IMG/VR virus record: IMGVR_UViG_3300025108_000001
Span: 1-64,000 of that record
Length of the DNA stretch: 64,000 bases
Origin: a virus
Direction: 5' to 3' (one strand)
Shown here: positions 1-59,460 of the stretch, piece after piece
How the letters are laid out: each line of letters starts with the position of its first letter
Numbering within the stretch: position 1 is the first letter of the stretch
Translations under genes and position numbers: made by a program
The notes under the pieces: generated by a model
What the model saw: only the letters and a program-made list of their open reading frames with translations
Told to the model about the DNA's origin: nothing
Database searches by the model: none

Positions 1-3000
1 CGTCTTTCTTAAAATTAATTCTTGAATATTGATTATTTATATTTAACCCCGCATTATCCAAATTAACATCACTTGTGAATGTTTTAGCGCCACTAAATGT
101 TTGTGTACCTGCTAATGTAGCATCACCCGCAGTACCCCAACTAAAAGAACCATCACCATCTGATAATAATGCGTCACCACTACTACCATTACCACTAACA
201 TTTAATTGGTCTGCTCCTATACCATCATCAGCAACCTTCAAAGTTAATTCGAATGGAGTACCTGTATCTCCTGTGCTTACATCTGTAAAGGTAATATCTA
301 AACCATTACCTTCATTAAACTTAATAAATCTACCATCAGGAATAAGAACATCTGTATCTGAACTGTCTCTTACAGTAAAGGCCATTTTAGCAGGTAATGC
401 TCCGAATGTTCCATCATGCTTTAAGAAATGTCCTGTTGTACCTGCTGATGGCAAAACACCACCATTACCTGTTCCAACTAAAGTTCTAATTTCTGGCGCA
501 GTTAAATCATCAGTAGCATCAGCATCTCCTGTAAAACCTAAGTCTGCTAATGTTAAGTTTCTTGTGGCTATTGTAGCATTAGCATCTGTAACGTGTCCTA
601 ATGTATCAGTAGTTATATTGAGGTCTAAATCTGAAATAACAGTTGCACCCGATAATAATGTTGTATCAATATCTATATCATCTCCATCATGTGTAGGATG
701 AGTATAATTATTAGCATTTTCAGCAATATTATCTAATTTTGATTTTAACGCATCAGTAAAGTCGTTTTCTGTAAGACCACCATCACCTACTGAATATGTA
801 GTGTTTGTATAATTAGAAGAATGAATTGTTCCCGCACTACTACTCGTCCAATCTATTACTTTATTAGCAGTTAAAGCACCGACATATCCCCATTGTGTCG
901 CATTAATTGTTGCAGTACCAATGTTTTCTAACTGCTCTCCTTCTGATGCTGTTAAATTAGAAAGTTCAGTTACTTGTGATATAGCAATTGTTTTATTTGT
1001 TAGTATGTCAGTAGTGTCTCTCCCAATTAAAAACGCATTAGCATTAGGTAAAGTAATAGTTCTATCAGCAGTAGGGTCAGTAATAGTTAATGTAGTCTCA
1101 TAATCATCAGAAGTAGCCCCTTCAAAGACAATAGCATTAGCCGCTTCCATAGTTACTGTGTCTATTTGTGTTGTTGTACCCGCTACATTCAAATTAGGAA
1201 CTAATAATGTTCCTGTGCTTGGATTGTATCTTAAAGCCCCTGTATCATCATGTAATGCACCTGTGCTTTCGTTTGCGAAAACAACAGGGAAGTTAGTGTT
1301 ATCAGTATTATCTGTAACTAAGATTATATTGTCAGAACCATCAAAAGATACTCCGCTAATTGTTCTTGCTGTTTCCAGTGCAGTTGCAGTTGGAGCAGTA
1401 CCAACTGCTAAATTTATTTTACCTGCTCCTACACCGCCATCTGCATAGGTTGCACTTATTCCTGTTTCAGTATTAGTAGCAAACATTGCACCTACTATAT
1501 CTTGAACCTGTTCTGTCGTTATTTGAGCAGAAGATATACTAGTTAAACCGCCTAATAGATTTAATTCAGTAGCACTAACAGTAACAGCAGTACCCGCAAT
1601 AGATAATTTACTATCGGGAATATCAAAGGTAGCATTATCTTTTATTCTTGCTACTTCTGTACCGTCATATTGTTGAAAGATAATTTCCTTTCCATCCACT
1701 GCGGGCATTATAATAGCATCAGAAGTTCCTATTGTTCCACTAGAAGTAGGGGTTGTTAATCTTAGATATGGGGCTATTCCTCCTTCATATCCCTGCCAAA
1801 AATAAGTTCCTTTGTTTGCACCGAGTCCGGCACTACCTATCAATACTCTATCGCCACCAATAATTTCCATAGAACCGAATGTTCCAGTACTACCTGTTTC
1901 ATTAGCAATATATGACCTATGAACATTACTAGTAGTATCTGATGTTATTCTTAAATAATCGTCTGTATTTATATCATCATAAACAAGTAGCCCGTCTGAA
2001 CTAGAAGTGCCTGTAACTTTTAGTTTACCAGTAAAGGCAGGGTCATCAGTAGGTTGTTTAGCAGTATTTGCAGCAATATCACCAATTGATGAAAGTTGAG
2101 CATCTGTTATTAGGTTCTTATCAGTTCCACTTGTAAAATTAGTAGTTGTAAATGTAGGTGTTGCCCCACTAATAACAGATTGGTCTAATGCTTTAACATG
2201 AGCAATTGCTGTTAATTCGCTATCCATTAATGCACCTGCTGATGTAACATTTGCTGTATCTGTAACATCAGCACCCGCTTCTATACCACTTAACACATGA
2301 GATTTGAGAACTGATATATCCATTCTCTTTAATGCGCCACTACCACTATTTTCACCTGCATCATTAAGAATTAATTCATCCGTATCAGCAAGTCCTGTTG
2401 TTAATGCCGTAGCACCTGTAATATCTCCTACACCGAAGTTAGATGCACCACTAGCAGATGCACCAATAGCAGTTCTAAAGTCCGAAGCACTTAACGCTGA
2501 AACACCATTATCGGCATCCATTCTAAGAAATCTTATTGCACCTGTATCTGCTAATGTAAATACTTCTGCACCAAAAGTAGAAGCACCCAAAGCAGTTCTA
2601 GCCGCAGTAGAATGCGCGGCAGTAATTACTGAAATCATTGGTGCATATACTTCTCCTATTACACCTTCTGTTGCGGCAAGTCTTCCTAAGAAGATATTAC
2701 CCGTTTCACCTGCACCAATGTTTTGCATTTTTGTAAAGGTAACAGCATCATTAGCCAACAAACCACTAGTAACTGAACCTGCTGTTCCTATTGTAGTGTC
2801 TAAAGTAGCACTAAAAACACCACTTCCATCTTTACCTAATCTTAAAAGACCGTTTGAACCTGTGCTTGGGTCTGCAATATGAAACGCTTTAATTCCTACA
2901 TTAGTAGCACCTAAGTTTGCTAATGCATTTGTTTGTTGAGTTGAGTTTAAACTTTGATTATTAACATCTACTCTCAATCTATTCCCTAAAGAAGTAGCCA

Positions 3001-6000
3001 TAGTGGTTGAAAATGAAGCATCATCACCTAAAGCCGCAGCCAATTCGTTTAGAGTATTTAATGCATCAGGTGATGAATCAACAAGATTTGAAATTTGAGT
3101 TCCAACATATGATACTATTGATTGTTGAGTAACAAGATGGTTTGCTGAATTAGAGGTCATAGCATCTTCATCTTTGACAGGAACAACAAAGTCTAAATTT
3201 CCATTAACATCATCATATCCTACTGTAATGAAAGTTTCTGTTCCGTCAAGCATACCCCCTACAAAATCTTCTATTTCTTCTTGAGTGCGAATAGTTTTAA
3301 GAGTATTAGCATCTATTTCCGCGAGTAATGTATCTGCTAACTTATCTTCTGTTATTGCATCATCAGCAATTCTGTCTGTTCCGAAAGTTCCGTCAGTAAT
3401 TTTATCAGCGTTTAGATTGGGAATATCTGTTGCCGCTAAGTCGGGAGTAAATGCATTACCTGCACTTAATGATAAACCGCTACCTGCTGTATAAGTAGTA
3501 TTTGTATCAGTAAATACAGCATTAGACGGAACATTCTTTCCAACAGTAAAAGTAGATACAGTATCAGCATCAATAGTCATTGCATTAATTTCACTAGCAG
3601 TTAATTGTGCAATAGGTGCAAGATTAGTTAATACAGAAGTGCTGTTAAGATAAGTTGTTAATTGAGCAACAGTCATTTCCCTGAGAGCAGAGTTAGATGT
3701 ATCATGTATTACGAATGAATCACCCGCAGCAAGAGAGTCTAGATTTGCTGCACCTGTTATATTACTAGCACCTAAAACAACAGAAGTTAGATATGTATTA
3801 GTATCTAAACTTGTGCTAAGAGTCCCATTTGTATTTGTTAATTTTAATAACCCATTAGTATTATTGTTAGGATTTGTAGTAGCAACTATTTTTTCACCAA
3901 TTGTAGTTACATCATCTAGTATGTCAAAATGAGCAGATGTCAATAACCCTGCCGCACTTGTTGTCGCGGCTGAATATGTGGTATCTTGAGTAGGGATTGT
4001 AAAATCAGCATCGGGTATAGTTACTGTTCTATTTGCAGTAGGTTCTGTAATACGAAGTGTAGTTTTTTCATCACCACTATCAGTATCATAACTGAATACT
4101 AAAGCATCTTGAACATCTATTTCTGTCTTATTTAAAGTAGTTGTTGTTCCCAGAACATTTAGATTACCTTTGATATTAATAGTGGTATCATTACCTGAAT
4201 CACCAATGTTTAAAGTATCATCACCAGTATAACTTCCTAATACTGTTGAAAGGTTTACCTTAGAAACATTTGAATCTGTATTTGTTATTGAACCGGATGC
4301 AGCACCAAGATAACCCCATTGTGCTGCTGTAATTGTAGTTGCTCCTATGTTTTGTATTGCTGTTATTTCTGATGCTGCTAAATCGTTGGTGAGAGCATAG
4401 ACTGTATCTGTATTAACACTAGAAATATCCAAAGTTTGATTAGTTCCACCCGATACAGTTGCCGTTATAGTTGAACCACTAAGAGATAATCCTGATAAAA
4501 ATTTATTCGTGTCTGTATTAACACCCGAAATATCAACAGTTAAATCTGCTAAACTTCCTGTTCTACCTATTGTTAATGTACCGCTACTAAAAGAAGCAGC
4601 ATCAACATAGTCATTACTATCAACAGAAGAACCCGCACCAATAGAGGTTCTAAATGCAGTTGCTTGATTAGTAGTTAAATCATCTGCTCTTGCTAAAAGA
4701 TTCGCTACGCTTACATTGTCAACTGCGGTATTACCTGCAAGAGCAGTACTAGATGTTGTTCCTAATGCTAAAGAACTTGTACCCGCACCAATATTACTCA
4801 ATATTGTTGTTTTGTCATCATTATCAATACTAGTAGAAGCAACCAAAGCAGCAGTTACATTTGTTGCGTTAGCAGTTAGTTTAGCAGTATTAGTAGAAAC
4901 AGCAGAAGCATCAGTATAACTAACTTTTGCAGTATTAAGACCTATCGCAGTAACGTTAGTTGCTATGTTAGTCGCATTAGTCGTTATATTACTAGACATT
5001 GTGTTTAGGTTAAGTGCAGAATTAACAGTAAGGTGTCCTACTTTCGTAGCGTCTGCTGATGGATATGTATTCTTAGCAGTATTAAGATTTAGAGCAGTAA
5101 CTAAGTTTTGAGTGCTACCACCATTAGGTATAGTAATATCCCCTGTAAACGTGGGGTCGTCAAACATAGTAGTTTTACTTTCATTAGTTACATTCCCTAA
5201 ACCTACATCAGAAGCAGTTGTACCTACATCTGAATGAGTTACACCTGCTCTAATAGCAGCAGTAGTTATATCTGAAACATTGGTTAATCCTACCATTGCT
5301 TTAGTAATACCACTTACCGTTCCTGTAAATGTAGGACTAGCGAGATTAGCCTTTAAATCTAAAGCAGTTTGTTGTGCGGTTGAAACTGGTTTAGCAGTAT
5401 CAGCAGTGTTGTTCACATTTCCTAATCCTACATCACTAGCACTAGCGGCAGTTAATATTTCAGATTGTAAAGTAGCAGCAGATTTATTATCCACGTCTCC
5501 TAATCCTACATCACTGGCCGTAGCAGCAGTAAGAGTTGCTGCTTGAATAGTTGCTTGACTAACATTAGTTACATTATCTAATCCCAATGTTGCAGTAGTT
5601 ATTTTAGAATTATCAAATATAACATCAGCATTACTAGCATTTTGTATAACTACCGCAGTTCCACCATCATTAATTTCTAATTTACCTGCGGCATTTATTC
5701 CTAATGTTAAATTATTAGAAAGTGCCTTACCTGCAATAGTTCTAGAAGTAGGGACTTTGGCGGCTAAATCAGAAGTTAAACTTGTAATTTTACTTTGTGC
5801 TAAAGTAGGTATTCTAGCAGTAGCAAAAGTTCCACTTGTTATTTTAGCAGTTGAAAGAGAAGGTATCAATGATTCAGTTACAGCACCCATTAATTCTGTT
5901 AAACTTAATTTTTTAACTGCACCCGAATCACTATTATCACGGAAAATTAAACTATCGTTTGCTATGTCTATACTAGATAAAGCAGTTAAACCACTAATAA

Positions 6001-7618
6001 TATCAGTAGTTCCAATGTTAGTATTTGTATCTGTATTTACCGATGCAATATCTAGAGTTTGGTTTGAGCCACCCGTTACAGTAGCAGTTATTGTAGTTCC
6101 ACTTAATGATAGACCGGAAAGAAATTTATTTGTATCTGCTGTCATGTCATCAACAACAACATTAATTTTACCACTAGTATCATCGTAAGTAGCACCAACT
6201 CTAGTTTCTGTATTGCTAGTAAACATAGCACCAACAATATCTTGTACTGCTTCTGTCGATATTTGTGAACTAGTAGTGTATCCTAATCCCGTTACGAAAG
6301 TATGTATTTGGTCTGCCGTAGCCAAACCTGTACCACCATCAGCAATAGCAGCAGTTCCTAAAGTAGCAGCAGCACCTAATCCTAAATTAGTAATAGCGTT
6401 AGATTTTTGTGTTGCTGTTAAGTTTTGACTTGCAGAATCTATCCTTAATCTATTACCTAAAGCAGTTGAAGTTGTTGTAGCAAAATTAGCATCATCTCCT
6501 AATGCTGCTGCTAATTCATTTAAAGTATCCAAAGCAGTAGGTGCAGAACTAACTAGCCCCGATACTTGACTATCTACATACGCTTTAACTGATTCCGCAG
6601 ATGCGACATTAGTAGCGGATGCCCCTGTCATTGTATCGCTATCTATTAATGGTAGTTGGGTATTAGTATCAGTAGAAGCAATTGTAATATTATTAGCATC
6701 TGTGTGTGTTAGTGTAACATTAGAACCCGCTACAAACTTAATATCTTGAGTGCCTGAACCTGCGCCACTTTCTGTTAATCGTAATATTATATCATTAGAA
6801 GAATCTACAAAAGACGTAGCATATTCATTTTGAGTATTAGTATTAGCAATATAACTAGGAGTACCAAAAGTACCATCGTGTTTCAGGAACTCTCCGGCAC
6901 TACCTGCTGATGGAATTAGACCTCCGTTTCCTGTGGAAATAGCAGCAATTGAAGAAGTTACATCGGCAGTTCTTGCTAAAGTTCCTGTTGAAGATGGAAG
7001 AGTAATAGTAGCAGAACCATATGAAATAGTTCCTGTCGGATTTATTTTGAAAGTTTCAGAACCACCATTTATTGCAGAAAAACCTCTAGAAGTTTGTACA
7101 TTTCCTGTCAACCATTGTATATCTCTAGTAGCCCCAATAGCAGAACCCGCAGTATATTTAACTAAAGCAATTGGTATATCTCCACTTTTTAATTCTGCTA
7201 CGGTAGCAGTACTTGTATTCGCTTTACCTGTTACTGCCCCTTCTCTGAAATACAAGTTGTTTAACGTTTCACCACTTTCTGTACCGTCTGCAATTACAAT
7301 TAAACCATACCAATCTTTACCCCCCGAAGCATTTGCAGTAATAGCGGGGTTGTGAGTTGTTATTTTTTTATTTGGAACAGAAACAACCATACCATCTCTA
7401 ATAGCAGTTAAAGCATTATCACCGCCATCAGTTTTCTCTATCTCATAATGGGTATAATTTGAAGTAGTTCCTTGAGTAATAACTGCTGTACTAATTAATC
7501 TATTTTGACCCATTGCAACATTTAAGGTTTTAATTATACCTGTATGTATTGCATCAGTTCCGTCAACTAATTGCGTTGTTGCTCCTAACCTACTAATAAA
7601 TCCTGTATTGTTAACCAT
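1..7618 (-). CDS. Giant modular tail fibre/adhesin (>2,500 aa, runs off the left edge)
   Basis: ATG at 7618 overlaps the stop of the upstream gene (MVNNTGFISRLG...). It is absent from the ORF track, consistent with no stop in the window, and all ten + strand shadow ORFs share one frame. Thr/Ala/Ser/Gly-rich with fibre-type repeats (LDTLNELAAALGDD x2, DVGLGNVDN, FLKHDGTFG x2). Confidence 0.85.
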   Translation of the reverse strand, partial: MVNNTGFISRLGATTQLVDGTDAIHTGIIKTLNVAMGQNRLISTAVITQGTTSNYTHYEIEKTDGGDNALTAIRDGMVVSVPNKKITTHNPAITANASGGKDWYGLIVIADGTESGETLNNLYFREGAVTGKANTSTATVAELKSGDIPIALVKYTAGSAIGATRDIQWLTGNVQTSRGFSAINGGSETFKINPTGTISYGSATITLPSSTGTLARTADVTSSIAAISTGNGGLIPSAGSAGEFLKHDGTFGTPSYIANTNTQNEYATSFVDSSNDIILRLTESGAGSGTQDIKFVAGSNVTLTHTDANNITIASTDTNTQLPLIDSDTMTGASATNVASAESVKAYVDSQVSGLVSSAPTALDTLNELAAALGDDANFATTTSTALGNRLRIDSASQNLTATQKSNAITNLGLGAAATLGTAAIADGGTGLATADQIHTFVTGLGYTTSSQISTEAVQDIVGAMFTSNTETRVGATYDDTSGKINVVVDDMTADTNKFLSGLSLSGTTITATVTGGSNQTLDIASVNTDTNTNIGTTDIISGLTALSSIDIANDSLIFRDNSDSGAVKKLSLTELMGAVTESLIPSLSTAKITSGTFATARIPTLAQSKITSLTSDLAAKVPTSRTIAGKALSNNLTLGINAAGKLEINDGGTAVVIQNASNADVIFDNSKITTATLGLDNVTNVSQATIQAATLTAATASDVGLGDVDNKSAATLQSEILTAASASDVGLGNVNNTADTAKPVSTAQQTALDLKANLASPTFTGTVSGITKAMVGLTNVSDITTAAIRAGVTHSDVGTTASDVGLGNVTNESKTTMFDDPTFTGDITIPNGGSTQNLVTALNLNTAKNTYPSADATKVGHLTVNSALNLNTMSSNITTNATNIATNVTAIGLNTAKVSYTDASAVSTNTAKLTANATNVTAALVASTSIDNDDKTTILSNIGAGTSSLALGTTSSTALAGNTAVDNVSVANLLARADDLTTNQATAFRTSIGAGSSVDSNDYVDAASFSSGTLTIGRTGSLADLTVDISGVNTDTNKFLSGLSLSGSTITATVSGGTNQTLDISSVNTDTVYALTNDLAASEITAIQNIGATTITAAQWGYLGAASGSITNTDSNVSKVNLSTVLGSYTGDDTLNIGDSGNDTTINIKGNLNVLGTTTTLNKTEIDVQDALVFSYDTDSGDEKTTLRITEPTANRTVTIPDADFTIPTQDTTYSAATTSAAGLLTSAHFDILDDVTTIGEKIVATTNPNNNTNGLLKLTNTNGTLSTSLDTNTYLTSVVLGASNITGAANLDSLAAGDSFVIHDTSNSALREMTVAQLTTYLNSTSVLTNLAPIAQLTASEINAMTIDADTVSTFTVGKNVPSNAVFTDTNTTYTAGSGLSLSAGNAFTPDLAATDIPNLNADKITDGTFGTDRIADDAITEDKLADTLLAEIDANTLKTIRTQEEIEDFVGGMLDGTETFITVGYDDVNGNLDFVVPVKDEDAMTSNSANHLVTQQSIVSYVGTQISNLVDSSPDALNTLNELAAALGDDASFSTTMATSLGNRLRVDVNNQSLNSTQQTNALANLGATNVGIKAFHIADPSTGSNGLLRLGKDGSGVFSATLDTTIGTAGSVTSGLLANDAVTFTKMQNIGAGETGNIFLGRLAATEGVIGEVYAPMISVITAAHSTAARTALGASTFGAEVFTLADTGAIRFLRMDADNGVSALSASDFRTAIGASASGASNFGVGDITGATALTTGLADTDELILNDAGENSGSGALKRMDISVLKSHVLSGIEAGADVTDTANVTSAGALMDSELTAIAHVKALDQSVISGATPTFTTTNFTSGTDKNLITDAQLSSIGDIAANTAKQPTDDPAFTGKLKVTGTSSSDGLLVYDDINTDDYLRITSDTTSNVHRSYIANETGSTGTFGSMEIIGGDRVLIGSAGLGANKGTYFWQGYEGGIAPYLRLTTPTSSGTIGTSDAIIMPAVDGKEIIFQQYDGTEVARIKDNATFDIPDSKLSIAGTAVTVSATELNLLGGLTSISSAQITTEQVQDIVGAMFATNTETGISATYADGGVGAGKINLAVGTAPTATALETARTISGVSFDGSDNIILVTDNTDNTNFPVVFANESTGALHDDTGALRYNPSTGTLLVPNLNVAGTTTQIDTVTMEAANAIVFEGATSDDYETTLTITDPTADRTITLPNANAFLIGRDTTDILTNKTIAISQVTELSNLTASEGEQLENIGTATINATQWGYVGALTANKVIDWTSSSAGTIHSSNYTNTTYSVGDGGLTENDFTDALKSKLDNIAENANNYTHPTHDGDDIDIDTTLLSGATVISDLDLNITTDTLGHVTDANATIATRNLTLADLGFTGDADATDDLTAPEIRTLVGTGNGGVLPSAGTTGHFLKHDGTFGALPAKMAFTVRDSSDTDVLIPDGRFIKFNEGNGLDITFTDVSTGDTGTPFELTLKVADDGIGADQLNVSGNGSSGDALLSDGDGSFSWGTAGDATLAGTQTFSGAKTFTSDVNLDNAGLNINNQYSRINFKKD

Positions 7619-55387: not shown

Positions 55388-55639
55388 TTAAGGAGCATAA
55401 AACGGCTTAACTCTTCTATTACAAGTAGTGCAATGTTTATCATTCCATTCTCCTGATGCGAAATTTAAATGACCCTTACAATAAGGACAGTAAGGGCGTT
55501 TTCTTTTACTAACGCTATCAAGAGCAGGTTTTTTATGTGTTTTTGTATTCTTTTTATTGTTATTACTATTAAAGTGGCCTAGATTCTTAATTATAGTGAA
55601 CCACAAGCCGTCAGATACTACCATTGTCATGCCTACCAC
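55388..55639 (-). CDS. Small Zn-finger protein with LWFTIIK tag variant
   Basis: CPYC...CTTC; first gene of the minus-strand region. Confidence 0.55.
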   Translation of the reverse strand: MVGMTMVVSDGLWFTIIKNLGHFNSNNNKKNTKTHKKPALDSVSKRKRPYCPYCKGHLNFASGEWNDKHCTTCNRRVKPFYAP

Positions 55640-55792
55640 TAGTAAAGTTAATTAAATTAACGATAATAAATAAAAAAAAATAAAAAAAATTTGCAAACAA
55701 AGCATATGGTTGGAGGCTAGGTTTAATCCAACCATATGGTATGGCTGTGACTTTGGTAAGGCCAACCCTATCTGAATATAGTGAGTTATAGT

Positions 55793-55876
55793 ATGTCAGA
55801 AGTTAAGGACTTACACGATGAAATAAAAATTTGGAGACAGCATATGAAAGAATGTAGGAGTGGTTTAAATGAATAA
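55793..55876 (+). CDS. 27-aa leaderless microprotein (not in ORF track)
   Basis: MSEVKDLHDEIKIWRQHMKECRSGLNE; ATG directly follows TAGT, 42 nt from the start of CTTTG; overlaps the next gene. Confidence 0.5.
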   Translation: MSEVKDLHDEIKIWRQHMKECRSGLNE

Positions 55877-56264
55877 TATATTTCAACATAGGCATTATAA
55901 TTATCTTGCTTTAGAATTGCCCTTTATATTGGGTTTAAATGAAGCCGAGGTTTCTTCTATGGCTACTAATCTGAAATACCATAATGAAAATTTTAATCAT
56001 AATAGATTTATGAACACATGGCGTAGAGAAGTTGAAAGAAGGAATGATGAAATGGAAATTACCATAGATAATCTTTCACATTATACATTTGATACAGAAG
56101 CACACAATTCGGGTAAATGTCCTGTTTGTGGAATAAACAACATAGGATATTACAAAGACGAAGTTGGCGTACTACGCCAATGCTTTGACTGTGGTTCTGA
56201 ATGGAATGATGAAATGGAAATTACCATAGAATTAACCGAAGAAACAGGAAGTGAAGTAGAATGA
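55869..56264 (+). CDS. Hypothetical protein with Zn-ribbon module
   Basis: CPVC...CFDC flanked by a duplicated NDEMEITI. Confidence 0.65.
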   Translation: MNNIFQHRHYNYLALELPFILGLNEAEVSSMATNLKYHNENFNHNRFMNTWRREVERRNDEMEITIDNLSHYTFDTEAHNSGKCPVCGINNIGYYKDEVGVLRQCFDCGSEWNDEMEITIELTEETGSEVE

Positions 56265-56539
56265 ATATAGAAGAATATGAGAAAATGAATTGGAAAACAC
56301 CATCTGATGAATTAGAAGATGCGGTGGAAAACTTAGTTGCAGAAGTGAAAAAGTTGCGTGAAGTCATAAGGAAAACCGAAAACCTTTGTACTCACAATTA
56401 TGTGACTATATCGGACTTTGAGATTAACGGCATAAATGTCAGCGTTACTATCCAATGCGATAGGTGCGGAGAAACACAGCAACAAACTTTAGACATAGAG
56501 CAGATAATATGGGATTTGGAATTGGGGTGGATAGATTGA
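56261..56539 (+). CDS. Hypothetical Zn-binding protein
   Basis: CTH...CDRC; ATGA overlap. Confidence 0.65.
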   Translation: MNIEEYEKMNWKTPSDELEDAVENLVAEVKKLREVIRKTENLCTHNYVTISDFEINGINVSVTIQCDRCGETQQQTLDIEQIIWDLELGWID

Positions 56540-56657
56540 GTAAAATATTAGGTTAGAACAAACCTAACAAAAATTGTTCCCCTGAGGGGGGTTGCGTTTC
56601 TCAAAGTTCCACTTACAACCATATGGTGTGGTGGCGACTTATACATGAGTAATGTAA

Positions 56658-56687
56658 TTACTCTTGTTCTTCTTCTTCTTCGTCCAC
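56658..56687 (-). CDS. 9-aa acidic micropeptide MDEEEEEQE
   Basis: Perfect GGAGGTGA SD 5 nt upstream of GTG. Confidence 0.5.
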   Translation of the reverse strand: MDEEEEEQE

Positions 56688-56822
56688 GTTTATCACCTCC
56701 CAATGTGGTAGCGCATCAATACTGATGCTACCATATGGTTGTGCGCGTTGTAAAACTTTGAGAACAATGTGCTGCAACCCGATGGTCTTTCGACCAAAGG
56801 GCTACCATGCATTGTGAGTGCC

Positions 56823-56855
56823 TTAATTTTCCTCTTCTTCTTCATCGTCTTTCAT
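56823..56855 (-). CDS. 10-aa acidic micropeptide MKDDEEEEEN
   Basis: AAAGGAGGT SD upstream; promoter-like element upstream; GAAA-loop hairpin downstream. Confidence 0.55.
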   Translation of the reverse strand: MKDDEEEEEN

Positions 56856-56980
56856 GGTAGCATACCTCCTTTCATACTATACAGTCTGATAACTAATATA
56901 TGAGGTATTACTCAAAGTTTCATACCATATGGTTGTGTAACACTTTGTAGTTCATAACCCCACTATTTTTAGTAAAATAG

Positions 56981-57196
56981 TATCATAGGGCTTCGGTGAA
57001 AGTTGATTCTTTTCATACTTCTAGCAGTGGGAAATTCGTTGTGCTAATATTGTTCAACCGATTAATTATACAATACTGTTCTAGAATAGTATGCATATGT
57101 CATTGAAATTTTAATAGAGACAAGAACGAATGTTCTGACAAATCTAAAAGTGGGATAAATCCTGTGATTCAATCAATTCACTTCAGCCCTGTGATA
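56981..57196 (+). ncRNA. Candidate ~216-nt structured RNA
   Basis: Terminal pairing TATCATAGGGCT/AGCCCTGTGATA (one G-U on the + strand), inner GTGAA/TTCAC and TTGATT/AATCAA, internal hairpins, no ORF in the track. Confidence 0.5.
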
Positions 57197-57207
57197 TCTT
57201 GGGAATT

Positions 57208-57429
57208 TTACATTTGATTTAGTGCATCAAGGTAGGTCTTGAGTACATTGAGTGCTTTACCTGTTTCTTCTACTACTTGAGAAGGTGAATCACCTCTAAT
57301 TTTAAGAGACTTAACAATGTAGACGTGATTTGAACCCGACTTAGATTGGGAAATCTCAATCTCATAGGGGTAACTCAAGTTTAGTATCTGTTCGGGTTGC
57401 GTTGTTTGAACTAACGGTTCTGTTGACAT
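57208..57429 (-). CDS. Leaderless 73-aa protein
   Basis: ATG follows TAGT, 27 nt from the start of a CATATA box and 43 nt from the start of CTTTG. Confidence 0.7.
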   Translation of the reverse strand: MSTEPLVQTTQPEQILNLSYPYEIEISQSKSGSNHVYIVKSLKIRGDSPSQVVEETGKALNVLKTYLDALNQM

Positions 57430-57573
57430 ACTACCTAGAACAAAAAAGAGTATATGGGATAGAACGACAAAGTGTATCCTACCATATGGTTGTAAGTGTG
57501 CTTTGCTAACGAAACCCTATCCTGTTTTGACTTTACCAATAGTGTAAGAGGGTGAAACCCAATATATACAGGA

Positions 57574-58059
57574 ATGATAAATATGACAGAACAACAAACA
57601 ATAGAAGAAAAAATTGATTTAATAACGACATGGATTGATGAAACTGATAGTTTCAACGATGATAATAATATGAGTAATTGGGCAACTTCTTCATGGGCTT
57701 ACGCTCTTGAAGAATATGCGGATACTGGCATAAAATCAGTAATCACAACGACAATTTCTCAATTTTCTAGGGCTGCTAAAAGATTTAAACTTAGTGATTA
57801 TCCTCTAGGCACTAGAGGTTCAAACTCTGTTTCTGCTGAAACTCAAGCGGAAATTGACGCACACAACCCATTCTTAGATTTTATGATGGAAGCATACGAG
57901 GCTCTGCCTGAAGTTAGCCACATTCACGCTAAAAAATCAAAGGCACGACCTGACAGACGCTACCTATCAGCGAAAGATTTTAGAAATCATTGGCTAGGTA
58001 TAATCACAGACAACGCAAAGGAGGCCGCTAAAACGGCTGATGTGGAGGCTACTCAATAA
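57574..58059 (+). CDS. Hypothetical protein flanked by long inverted repeats
   Basis: 161 aa (start may be 57583); UTRs carry perfect 15-bp plus 7-bp inverted repeats. Confidence 0.75.
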   Translation: MINMTEQQTIEEKIDLITTWIDETDSFNDDNNMSNWATSSWAYALEEYADTGIKSVITTTISQFSRAAKRFKLSDYPLGTRGSNSVSAETQAEIDAHNPFLDFMMEAYEALPEVSHIHAKKSKARPDRRYLSAKDFRNHWLGIITDNAKEAAKTADVEATQ

Positions 58060-58339
58060 TTGGGTAGCCTTCACCCTCTTACACCTCAGGGTTTACATTA
58101 ACAAAGCAACATTCCAAACCATATGGTTGTAGGTCTTAGATACACAAGGATAGTAAATGGAATTTATGTACTTTATGGTGGGTCGGTCGGCTTATATATG
58201 GTTTCGTGAATCCAGTGGTGTAAATCAAGAGATGACATCATTTGCCTGAGTGTAATCTATATTTCATATAAAGATAGTATCCTTGTGGAAAATACCTTTC
58301 ACTACCTACTACAACACTCATTTTGATGACTCATACTCT

Positions 58340-58700
<361 letters not shown>

Positions 58701-58739
58701 ATTACATCACACTCACACATAAGGATTGTCTCGTAAATC

Positions 58740-59460
58740 TAGGACTTGAAACTACTGAAACAGGTATAGCAATATTCCCTCAGTAGCAGAAGGTGTTAGT
58801 TGACCTTGTGGGAACTAGGGGTTTTTTACAGTAATAAGAACCGAGTAAATAATTTGTTATCCTTAGCGGGATTGCAAGTTAAACCACTCAGAAGAAGATG
58901 CAGAAGTTTGCATTAGAAGAACCAAACCAAACAGTTGAGATTCAAACAACTGAATTACAAGTAGCGAAAAATGACCTTCATCAGAACGGTAGTGAAGTAG
59001 CAAACGTCTTTCAAGTGCGAATTAATTCTTAGTAGGGTTGGGAAATCTAAAAAATGCTTTCTTTGGAAAAGGTATTTCCGAAGAACTAAGCGCAATAATG
59101 ATGAAAGCAATTTTAGTCATGGTCTTTCGAGGCTATGCATTTGTAAGTAATATTAGTAGTCGGCATAAGCAGTGAAACATCATTGGTAACATTTGACAAT
59201 TGTTATCATACCACCTTCGTGTAAAGCGGCATAGTACGTTTTTTCTTTCCCCTTTCAAATTCAAAAATATCCTGTATGGGTTTTACCCTTACAAATGGAC
59301 TTGTCTTTACTGTCATAGAGGCAAGTCCTACAACTCAAAATATCTTGATAATTGATACTGTCATCTGATATAACTGAGTTAGGTTTTAGATAATAATAAA
59401 TTGGATAAATTCGTTTCGTTCTGTAACGTGTTGGCATCTCCTATCTAGTCGTGTGGTGCG
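58740..59460 (+). ncRNA. Candidate large structured non-coding RNA
   Basis: About 700 nt with no ORF of 60 aa or more, dense in hairpins (CTACTGA/TCAGTAG, CAGTTG/CAACTG, CTTAGT/ACTAAG, AAATGCTTT/AAGGTATTT, GGACTTGTCT/AGGCAAGTCC). Confidence 0.45.

Follow-up and report, generated by a model that had tools for sequence, protein, structure and literature searches.

Archaeal promoters of leaderless mRNAs are built from a B recognition element (BRE) and a TATA box, and may carry upstream activator sites (UAS), for example those of the Ptr2 type. In T4-type phages, promoter-early stem-loops (PeSLs) have been described (Arbiol et al. 2010, PMC2839356; PMC4122927), modules that are shuffled by homologous recombination (PMC2839356). 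Among archaeal tailed viruses, the nearest precedent is halovirus HGTV-1, in which, as summarized in PMC3950731 (after Sencilo et al. 2013), many open reading frames (ORFs) in one portion of that genome have a TATA-like box and an inverted repeat ahead of them, a motif likened to PeSLs by its authors. Here we analysed an array of palindromic sites between positions 55701 and 58127 of a 64,000-nucleotide stretch of viral DNA (hereafter the window; positions 1 to 64,000 of IMG/VR record IMGVR_UViG_3300025108_000001). The complete record is 99,250 bp long and carries an exact 5,440-bp terminal repeat, giving a genome unit of 93,810 bp.

The array resembles PeSLs in that short conserved modules, each a promoter plus a stem-loop, stand beside small genes, orphans for the most part, within a hyperplastic region. 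As in PeSLs, the small genes have a conserved promoter motif immediately upstream, and close relatives differ by insertion, deletion or replacement of units at the modules. It differs in its promoters, which are of the archaeal TATA/leaderless type and not the sigma-70 early promoters by which PeSLs are recognised, and in having an invariant 10-bp palindrome at the centre of a two-sided module, with inversions occurring. HGTV-1 likewise has, by the published summary, a TATA-like box and an inverted repeat before many of its ORFs; its sequence is different, and the palindrome of our array, ACCATATGGT, is not enriched there (4 matches versus 4 for a control pattern). We read the design as a PeSL-like mobile regulatory cassette on archaeal promoter logic, built around an invariant palindrome as putative operator. 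We consider it likely that the sites are PeSL-like promoter/terminator junctions with a common palindromic operator, shuffled by homologous recombination; the support comes from sequence statistics and comparison of relatives, namely promoter geometry, arm classes, stem covariation, clade conservation and breakpoints at the cores.

Core sites

Six exact copies of ACCATATGGT and one variant, AGCATATGGT, make up the seven cores, and neither form was found elsewhere in the 93.8-kb genome. Searching the 64-kb window for ACCATATGGT with at most one mismatch returned seven matches, at 55701, 55731, 56618, 56730, 56924, 57481 and 58118 (cores s1 to s7), against a mean of 2.0 in shuffled controls, where none of 100 shuffles reached seven. 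All seven are confined to 2.4 kb at the changeover between minus-strand and plus-strand transcription. Asymmetry marks 7/7 copies of the core, one strand reading the extended form ACCATATGGTTGK; exact matches to this form number six in the 99,250-bp record, every one of them in the array.

Reading outward, CTTTG follows the core after 6–16 nucleotides (nt) on eight of the 14 window arms (s2+, s3-, s4+, s5+, s5-, s6+, s6- and s7-), and on a ninth, s1-, it overlaps the variant core. An A[AT]CCC block stands 7–8 nt past CTTTG on six window arms and 15 nt past it on s4+, and the combined pattern CTTTG-N4-9-A[ACT]CCC has eight matches in the genome, six of which are in the array. Positions 56610–56627 and 57481–57498 form an exact 18-bp inverted identity. 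Similarly, s1 and s2 are joined by a perfect 12-bp inverted repeat with a 12-nt loop (55703–55738, no strand; arms 55703–55714 and 55727–55738), in which the closing ACC of the s1 right arm is the start of core s2. The first-pass annotation of this DNA had reported the seven cores, the outward CTTTG and AACCC/ATCCC blocks and both inverted repeats; all of these are confirmed.

Predicted promoter arms

We defined an arm as a core with its outward flank, and compiled approximately 790–850 non-identical arms from the fetched loci, the number depending on the flank length required. CTTTG was found within 30 nt of the core on 80% of arms, i.e., usually on both sides of the core. In arms with CTTTG and CCC, the first ATG opening an ORF lay 25–30 nt after CCC in 58 of 183 cases, whereas a random CCC gave about 2% per 5-nt bin. 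The distance from CTTTG to ATG had its mode at 37–38 nt (36–39 nt in 89/139 arms) and was uncorrelated with the spacing between core and CTTTG (r = 0.08), which was 3–9 nt in the 139-arm set and reached 11 nt when all arms were considered. Furthermore, these ATGs were preceded by C or T at position -1 in 90% of cases, compared with 47% at control gene starts, and had a Shine-Dalgarno motif in only 5%, compared with 35% in controls, while an AT-rich 'taaa' signal was observed approximately 13–16 nt after CTTTG, near -25. The three window arms s2+, s5- and s6- show the same arrangement, with ATG at 37, 37 and 38 nt after CTTTG and TAGT before each.

The spacing, the initiator-like pyrimidine at -1, the scarcity of Shine-Dalgarno motifs and the box near -25 together give an archaeal TATA/leaderless geometry, by which the arms facing outgoing genes are predicted to be archaeal TATA promoters for leaderless mRNA. 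CTTTG would accordingly be an upstream element of constant position, about -43 to -39, with the palindrome floating further upstream. With known archaeal BRE/TATA leaderless promoters these arms share the AT-rich box near -25, the pyrimidine/purine step at -1/+1, the missing ribosome-binding site and an upstream dyad; they differ in reading A-ACCC at the BRE, in the extra CTTTG, and in having one dyad common to two divergent arms. Of the earlier suggestion that the sites act as bidirectional early promoters, the bidirectional promoter geometry emerged from the comparative statistics, and the early timing is presumed.

Two other promoter types were tried and rejected. A Bacteroidetes -33/-7 promoter does not fit: a TAnnTTTG element is missing, and 13–16 nt separate CTTTG from the AT-rich box. 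Support for a promoter within a long ACCC...GGGT stem was weak, with GGG just before ATG in only 11 of 64 arms.

Virus identity and host

The minus strand carries the head-tail module (terminase, portal, protease, capsid and giant ORFs) and the plus strand the replication module (superfamily 1 (SF1) helicase, ATP-dependent ligase, clamp loader, PolB in two ORFs, and nucleases). The major capsid protein matched archaeal tailed viruses only, in a search of 50,697 phage records, and the clamp loader scored 275 bits with the archaeal RFC small-subunit model (below the model cut-off of 303), the bacterial DnaX model giving 103 bits. Philosof et al. 2017 (PMC5434244) describe division of PolB in two as distinguishing magrovirus group B. 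Our virus belongs to this group of tailed viruses of marine archaea: its 93,810-bp unit falls within the range of approximately 90–100 kb, its RFC is archaeal-type, it has an ATP-dependent ligase, its PolB is split, and its capsid is related to those of archaeal tailed viruses. The capsid, RFC and split PolB therefore indicate an archaeal host, presumably of the Poseidoniales, in which promoters of the TATA/TFB type are expected.

The Pfam models PCNA_N and DNA_primase_S had no match in the genome, which is uninformative, as magrovirus replication proteins are highly divergent (PMC5434244). A reading as a crAss-like phage that uses promoters of a virion RNA polymerase was given up, since the DFDxD motif is missing from the giant ORFs, the capsid matches archaeal viruses only, and the clamp loader is of the archaeal RFC type. 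A search for tRNA genes was negative; comparing the region by blastn with the 50,697 phage records gave no match, and Rfam at E ≤ 1 returned chance miRNA-like rows only. The terminal repeat falls inside a giant gene (window 1–7618; genome 91928–99250). Across the junction of the 93,810-bp unit this gene reads as an ORF of about 3,166 amino acids (aa), followed by a 2,142-aa ORF; neither belongs to a Pfam family, and the sole PHROG match was weak and to a family of unknown function.

Stem and arm classes

We found that the third block of the site is the 3' foot of a stem, whose one strand is the core-end GGT with spacer 1 and whose other is spacer 2 with ACC, placing CTTTG in the loop; the two spacers are similar in length. 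Complementarity between them was 0.535 paired versus 0.403 ± 0.008 in permuted sets, and homologous arms show compensatory changes (GGATA/TATCC in the window, GGTCATA/TATGACC in relative L012 and GGTAG/CTACC in relative L093).

Beyond the stem, arms continue in two ways. In 111 arms, ACC(C) is followed by an AT-rich box, and the adjacent gene is outgoing in 76 of these, with its start a median of 30 nt away. In another 83, a GC tetraloop hairpin follows, e.g., ACCCC-GAAG-GGGC, and the adjacent gene is incoming in 70/83, its stop a median of 37.5 nt away. The two classes imply that each core joins promoter and terminator-type arms in any combination.

The stem could also be read as a signal at the RNA level, with the CTTTG/CAAAG-loop stems acting in processing, termination or antitermination via an RNA-binding protein and the palindrome forming part of that signal. 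Covariation of the spacers as a stem with a conserved loop is what such a signal would show, and many hairpin arms are C(UUCG)G tetraloops on the incoming strand. At divergent pairs such as s6, however, both arms lie upstream of the predicted starts and would stay untranscribed; the fixed distance from CTTTG to the start codon is promoter-like, and wobble-pair counts gave no clear strand preference after base composition was considered. We therefore regard an RNA-level role as unlikely.

Cassette exchange among relatives

The first-pass annotation had proposed that cassette content, order and orientation be compared across related genomes, and we found that they differ, with most breakpoints at the cores. 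Aligned with L016 (helicase 98–99% identical), the window is homologous up to s1/s2 and then diverges. The three-gene unit (55741–56617) is absent from L016; the segment 56587–56739, which holds the first micropeptide and its ribosome-binding site, is present there at 89% identity, but in reverse orientation and relocated beside s2; L016 has gained 630 bp in the form of a unit of two minus-strand genes with a canonical arm of its own to drive them; and the 161-aa unit occurs twice in tandem, each copy between cores. In the comparison with L007, homology stops at 57491, the edge of core s6. Gain, loss and replacement of units at the motif were seen in the window versus L016, L007 and L010. Overall, 7/10 ends of syntenic alignments inside the array fell in a core or its arms, which cover approximately 20% of the region, and breakpoints were observed at outer arm edges as well. 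Among 16 arrays, 94 of 134 raw ORF clusters, spurious ORFs included, were confined to one genome. The units also look self-contained in either orientation, as had been claimed, with their own promoter arms and both orientations seen.

The observation that no recombinase is visible in the window extends to the complete genome, where neither Phage_integrase (PF00589) nor Resolvase (PF00239) was matched, i.e., no tyrosine or serine recombinase. Considering this together with the breakpoints at outer arm edges, we attribute the shuffling to homologous recombination between the repeated 40–60-bp modules.

We weighed this against a dedicated site-specific system, integron- or shufflon-like, which would capture, excise and invert cassettes at the palindromes and their flanking hairpins. 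Unit presence, order and orientation do differ between near-identical relatives, mostly with breakpoints at cores, and the sites are palindromic with foldable flanking arms; the array also shares with integron attC arrays and shufflons the layout of small units, variable in content and orientation, bounded by repeated foldable or palindromic sites. It differs from them in having neither an integrase nor an Rci-type recombinase and in lacking a single expression promoter, the cassettes carrying promoters of their own. Moreover, breakpoints are not restricted to the core, and the promoter geometry already accounts for the conservation of the blocks. Such a system is quite improbable, and the array does not fall into the integron/shufflon class suggested earlier, given the lack of integrase or resolvase, the cassette promoters and the occurrence of both orientations.

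A further proposal, to which we assign a low probability, is that the palindrome is the target of an unrecognised protein, virus-encoded or delivered by the virion, which would switch on the leaderless promoters and also nick or recombine the DNA at the cores. If true, this would be a site-specific cassette-exchange system of archaeal viruses, integron-like in function without a known integrase.

Conservation across relatives

Of the IMG/VR helicase relatives at ≥46% identity, all 17 whose locus extends upstream of the helicase carry 4–9 cores in the 1.3–6 kb upstream of this gene, compared with 0/18 relatives at ≤37% identity. A scan for the core plus CTTTG found at least 117 loci, at least 67 of which hold three or more cores, and many of which are on 90–97-kb contigs. 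When the promoter of the 73-aa gene (57429–57208) was aligned across seven viruses, the runs of invariant columns were CAAAG, ACCATATGGTT, CTTTG and the start codon; other invariant columns were few and isolated, and the spacers varied freely. Viruses throughout the clade that bears the motif keep the 73-aa protein family, in which K30, G32 and K40 are invariant, and the gene stands directly behind a core in most of the 15 family members examined.

In contrast to this spread among viruses, the full composite pattern had only 6 occurrences in 185,579 prokaryote genomes, and use of the composite by host genomes was not seen. This near-absence argues that the composite belongs to the virus, although the palindrome may still be read by a host factor. 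The only contig with multiple composite matches (three) among the prokaryote genomes was NZ_NZTP01000027.1, labelled as a flavobacterial metagenome-assembled genome (Altibacter sp.); on this 14.7-kb contig, six ACCATATGGT cores precede a helicase gene whose product shares 52% identity with ours, and the contig is most likely a misbinned magrovirus fragment.

The magrovirus papers that could be searched do not mention this design: the terms promoter, palindrome and intergenic are absent from them, and no relevant use of 'motif' occurs. Literature matches to the 10-mer ACCATATGGT were, among the titles listed, to unrelated papers only.

Proposed mechanism and its significance

Returning to the PeSL-like reading, we propose that ACCATATGGT serves as operator for a DNA-binding protein that acts as a dimer and would co-regulate the whole block of small accessory, probably early, genes. 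The description of the sites in the first-pass annotation as a dimeric-protein binding array is indeed a reasonable inference from the invariant palindrome. On each side of the core, CTTTG would be presented in the loop of a short stem (GGT plus spacer, spacer plus ACC). In a promoter arm, a TATA box past the stem would direct host TBP, TFB and RNA polymerase to start on the A of the ATG 37–38 nt after CTTTG, yielding a leaderless mRNA; in a terminator arm, transcription of a gene running toward the core would end at a GC-rich tetraloop hairpin located right after its stop codon. The two arm types would make every interval a self-contained promoter-gene-terminator unit. Since the same 40–60-bp module occurs in both orientations, homologous recombination, whether within one genome or between co-infecting relatives, could remove or double units at the cores, exchange them or flip them.

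Several observations weigh against this explanation. Just before the TATA box, where a purine-rich BRE would typically stand, the sequence is A-ACCC, which forms the 3' foot of the stem. The minimum free energy of the arms (mean -6.5 versus -5.0 kcal/mol in controls) supports the stem moderately, and the arms are not phylogenetically independent. Arms s3+, s4- and s7+ are without CTTTG. Mosaic sequences, whenever they are aligned, can be expected in part to show breakpoints where motifs are conserved. The search for a protein that would bind the palindrome was negative: scanning 25 neighbouring small proteins with Pfam and PHROG gave no helix-turn-helix or ribbon-helix-helix match and only weak zinc-ribbon hints, and the AlphaFold model of the 73-aa protein, a beta-hairpin plus a long helix (predicted local distance difference test (pLDDT) score 79), had no Foldseek match in the PDB. 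The 73-aa protein was tried and rejected as operator binder, having neither a Pfam family nor a Foldseek PDB match.

Magroviruses are among the most abundant ocean viruses, and both they and their Poseidoniales hosts are uncultured, with gene control undescribed. The module offers a concrete predicted promoter architecture, with CTTTG at about -40, TATA at about -25 and the start on the ATG, and the palindrome is a candidate operator for the whole accessory-gene block. Self-contained units with identical, recombination-prone junctions could explain the fast turnover of small genes that probably serve host takeover or anti-defence. The PeSL idea of mobile regulatory cassettes would thereby be carried from T4-type phages to archaeal viruses.

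Units in the window

The cores, identified by pattern match and assigned no strand, divide the region as follows. The variant core s1 (55701–55710; site 55698–55710) is overlapped at its left edge by CAAAG (55698–55702). Core s2 (55731–55740) is followed by the plus-strand promoter arm s2+ (55751–55795), with CTTTG at 55751–55755, AACCC at 55764–55768 and an AT-rich box at 55769–55781; TAGT then precedes the ATG at 55793, 37 nt after CTTTG. This arm leads into the plus-strand three-gene unit (55793–56539), which opens with a leaderless 27-aa ORF (55793–55876), continues with a 131-aa ORF (55869–56264) and a 92-aa ORF (56261–56539), both Shine-Dalgarno-led and zinc-ribbon-like, and closes with the hairpin arm s3-. 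Within the 131-aa gene, 28 nt are repeated exactly and in direct orientation (56041–56068 and 56203–56230), so that NDEMEITI is encoded twice, an internal duplication.

The terminator-type arm s3- (56551–56606, minus strand) carries hairpins past the stop of the 92-aa gene, including CCCCTGAGGGG, and CAAAG at 56602–56606; core s3 occupies 56618–56627. On the minus strand behind it, a 9-aa poly-Glu micropeptide ORF (56658–56687) has a GTG start and a GGGAGG ribosome-binding site. In the inverted L016 unit (L016 1459–1545) the ribosome-binding site and GTG start of this ORF are kept, and it encodes VDEDEEEEQE. Core s4 (56730–56739) and its left-arm hairpin, GGTAGCATCA / TGATGCGCTACC, span 56705–56739 (no strand), the left arm being without CTTTG. 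On the other side, the terminator-type arm s4+ (56756–56800, plus strand) has CTTTG at 56756–56760, AACCC at 56776–56780 and the hairpin GGTCTTTCGACC, and is located past the stop of the second micropeptide.

That second micropeptide belongs to the minus-strand promoter arm and unit s5- (56823–56917), in which CTTTG (reverse complement, 56913–56917) and a CATATAT box are followed by TAGT and then ATG at 56875, 37 nt from CTTTG. The unit consists of a leaderless 7-aa upstream ORF (56875–56852) and a 10-aa poly-Glu ORF (56855–56823), and ends at the hairpin arm s4+. Both poly-Glu micropeptide ORFs (9 and 10 aa) have a strong ribosome-binding site, and the second stands behind the leaderless 7-aa upstream ORF that opens at the predicted start site.

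Core s5 (56924–56933) faces, on its plus-strand side, an arm together with the ORF-poor stretch that it would transcribe (56943–57205), with CTTTG at 56943–56947 and AACCCC at 56956–56961; TAGT then A follow near 56982, approximately 34 nt after CTTTG, so that s5+ faces 220 ORF-poor nt. A structured RNA had earlier been proposed for the interval between s5 and s6; the fold of 56985–57205 was not significant on either the plus (z = -1.6) or the minus strand (z = -1.7).

Core s6 (57481–57490) lies in the middle of a divergent promoter pair. Toward the minus strand, the 73-aa gene and its promoter arm s6- together span 57208–57472, with CTTTG (reverse complement) at 57468–57472, ATCCC (reverse complement) at 57456–57460, an ATATAC box, and TAGT then ATG 38 nt after CTTTG. 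Toward the plus strand, arm s6+ and the 158/161-aa gene span 57501–58059, with CTTTG at 57501–57505 and AAACCC at 57512–57517; the gene begins at the ATG at 57583 or 57574, ends at 58059, and its unit closes at arm s7-. Here a TAGT-purine junction 38 nt after CTTTG gives the predicted start G57544. An exact 15-nt inverted repeat (57542–57556 and 58070–58084) brackets the 161-aa gene, its second copy lying just past the stop codon; as the 5' copy starts 2 nt upstream of predicted G57544, the mRNA could close into a 5'-3' panhandle. The terminator-type arm s7- (58070–58106, minus strand), past the stop of the 161-aa gene, has an ACCCT..AGGGT stem and CAAAG at 58102–58106. Core s7 (58118–58127) is the last of the array, and its right side is without CTTTG.

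Flanking sequences

Between the last core and the helicase, 1.3 kb (58130–59450) contain no long ORF (none above approximately 50 aa) and are conserved at 71–89% in L007, L016 and L010. In this stretch, especially at 58340–58630, TATAG is repeated approximately 12.6 times and AATGAGAA three times, alongside a (CT)18 run and inverted repeats rich in AT; Rfam found nothing in 58130–59450. The stretch is a candidate for a replication origin or for a long non-coding RNA.

Whether the array could itself be the origin, its dyads bound by an initiator in the manner of archaeal origin recognition box (ORB) sites beside the A-rich tract 55660–55695, was also considered. The array occupies the strand switch, with the replication module immediately downstream; together s1 and s2 make up a long palindrome next to the A-tract; and the cumulative GC skew turns here. 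The sites, however, are spread over 2.4–3.9 kb with genes in between, their arms are tied to gene starts and stops, the genome has no Cdc6/Orc1 winged-helix domain (Cdc6_C), and 58340–58630 is the better candidate; an origin at the array is thus very unlikely. A packaging or genome-end signal, the remaining earlier suggestion, is scarcely credible: in its favour is only that the sites are a repeated signal in a non-coding-rich region, and we found no evidence for it, the exact 5,440-bp terminal repeat being approximately 50 kb away and the sites standing at gene boundaries with promoter geometry.

On the opposite flank, an 80-aa zinc-ribbon protein (ATG at 55630, minus strand) is the first gene of the structural operon, with long T-runs upstream (55637–55700). 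A TAGT-G junction stands approximately 7 nt before its ATG; being off the canonical CTTTG distance, this junction probably marks a separate promoter class for the late arm.

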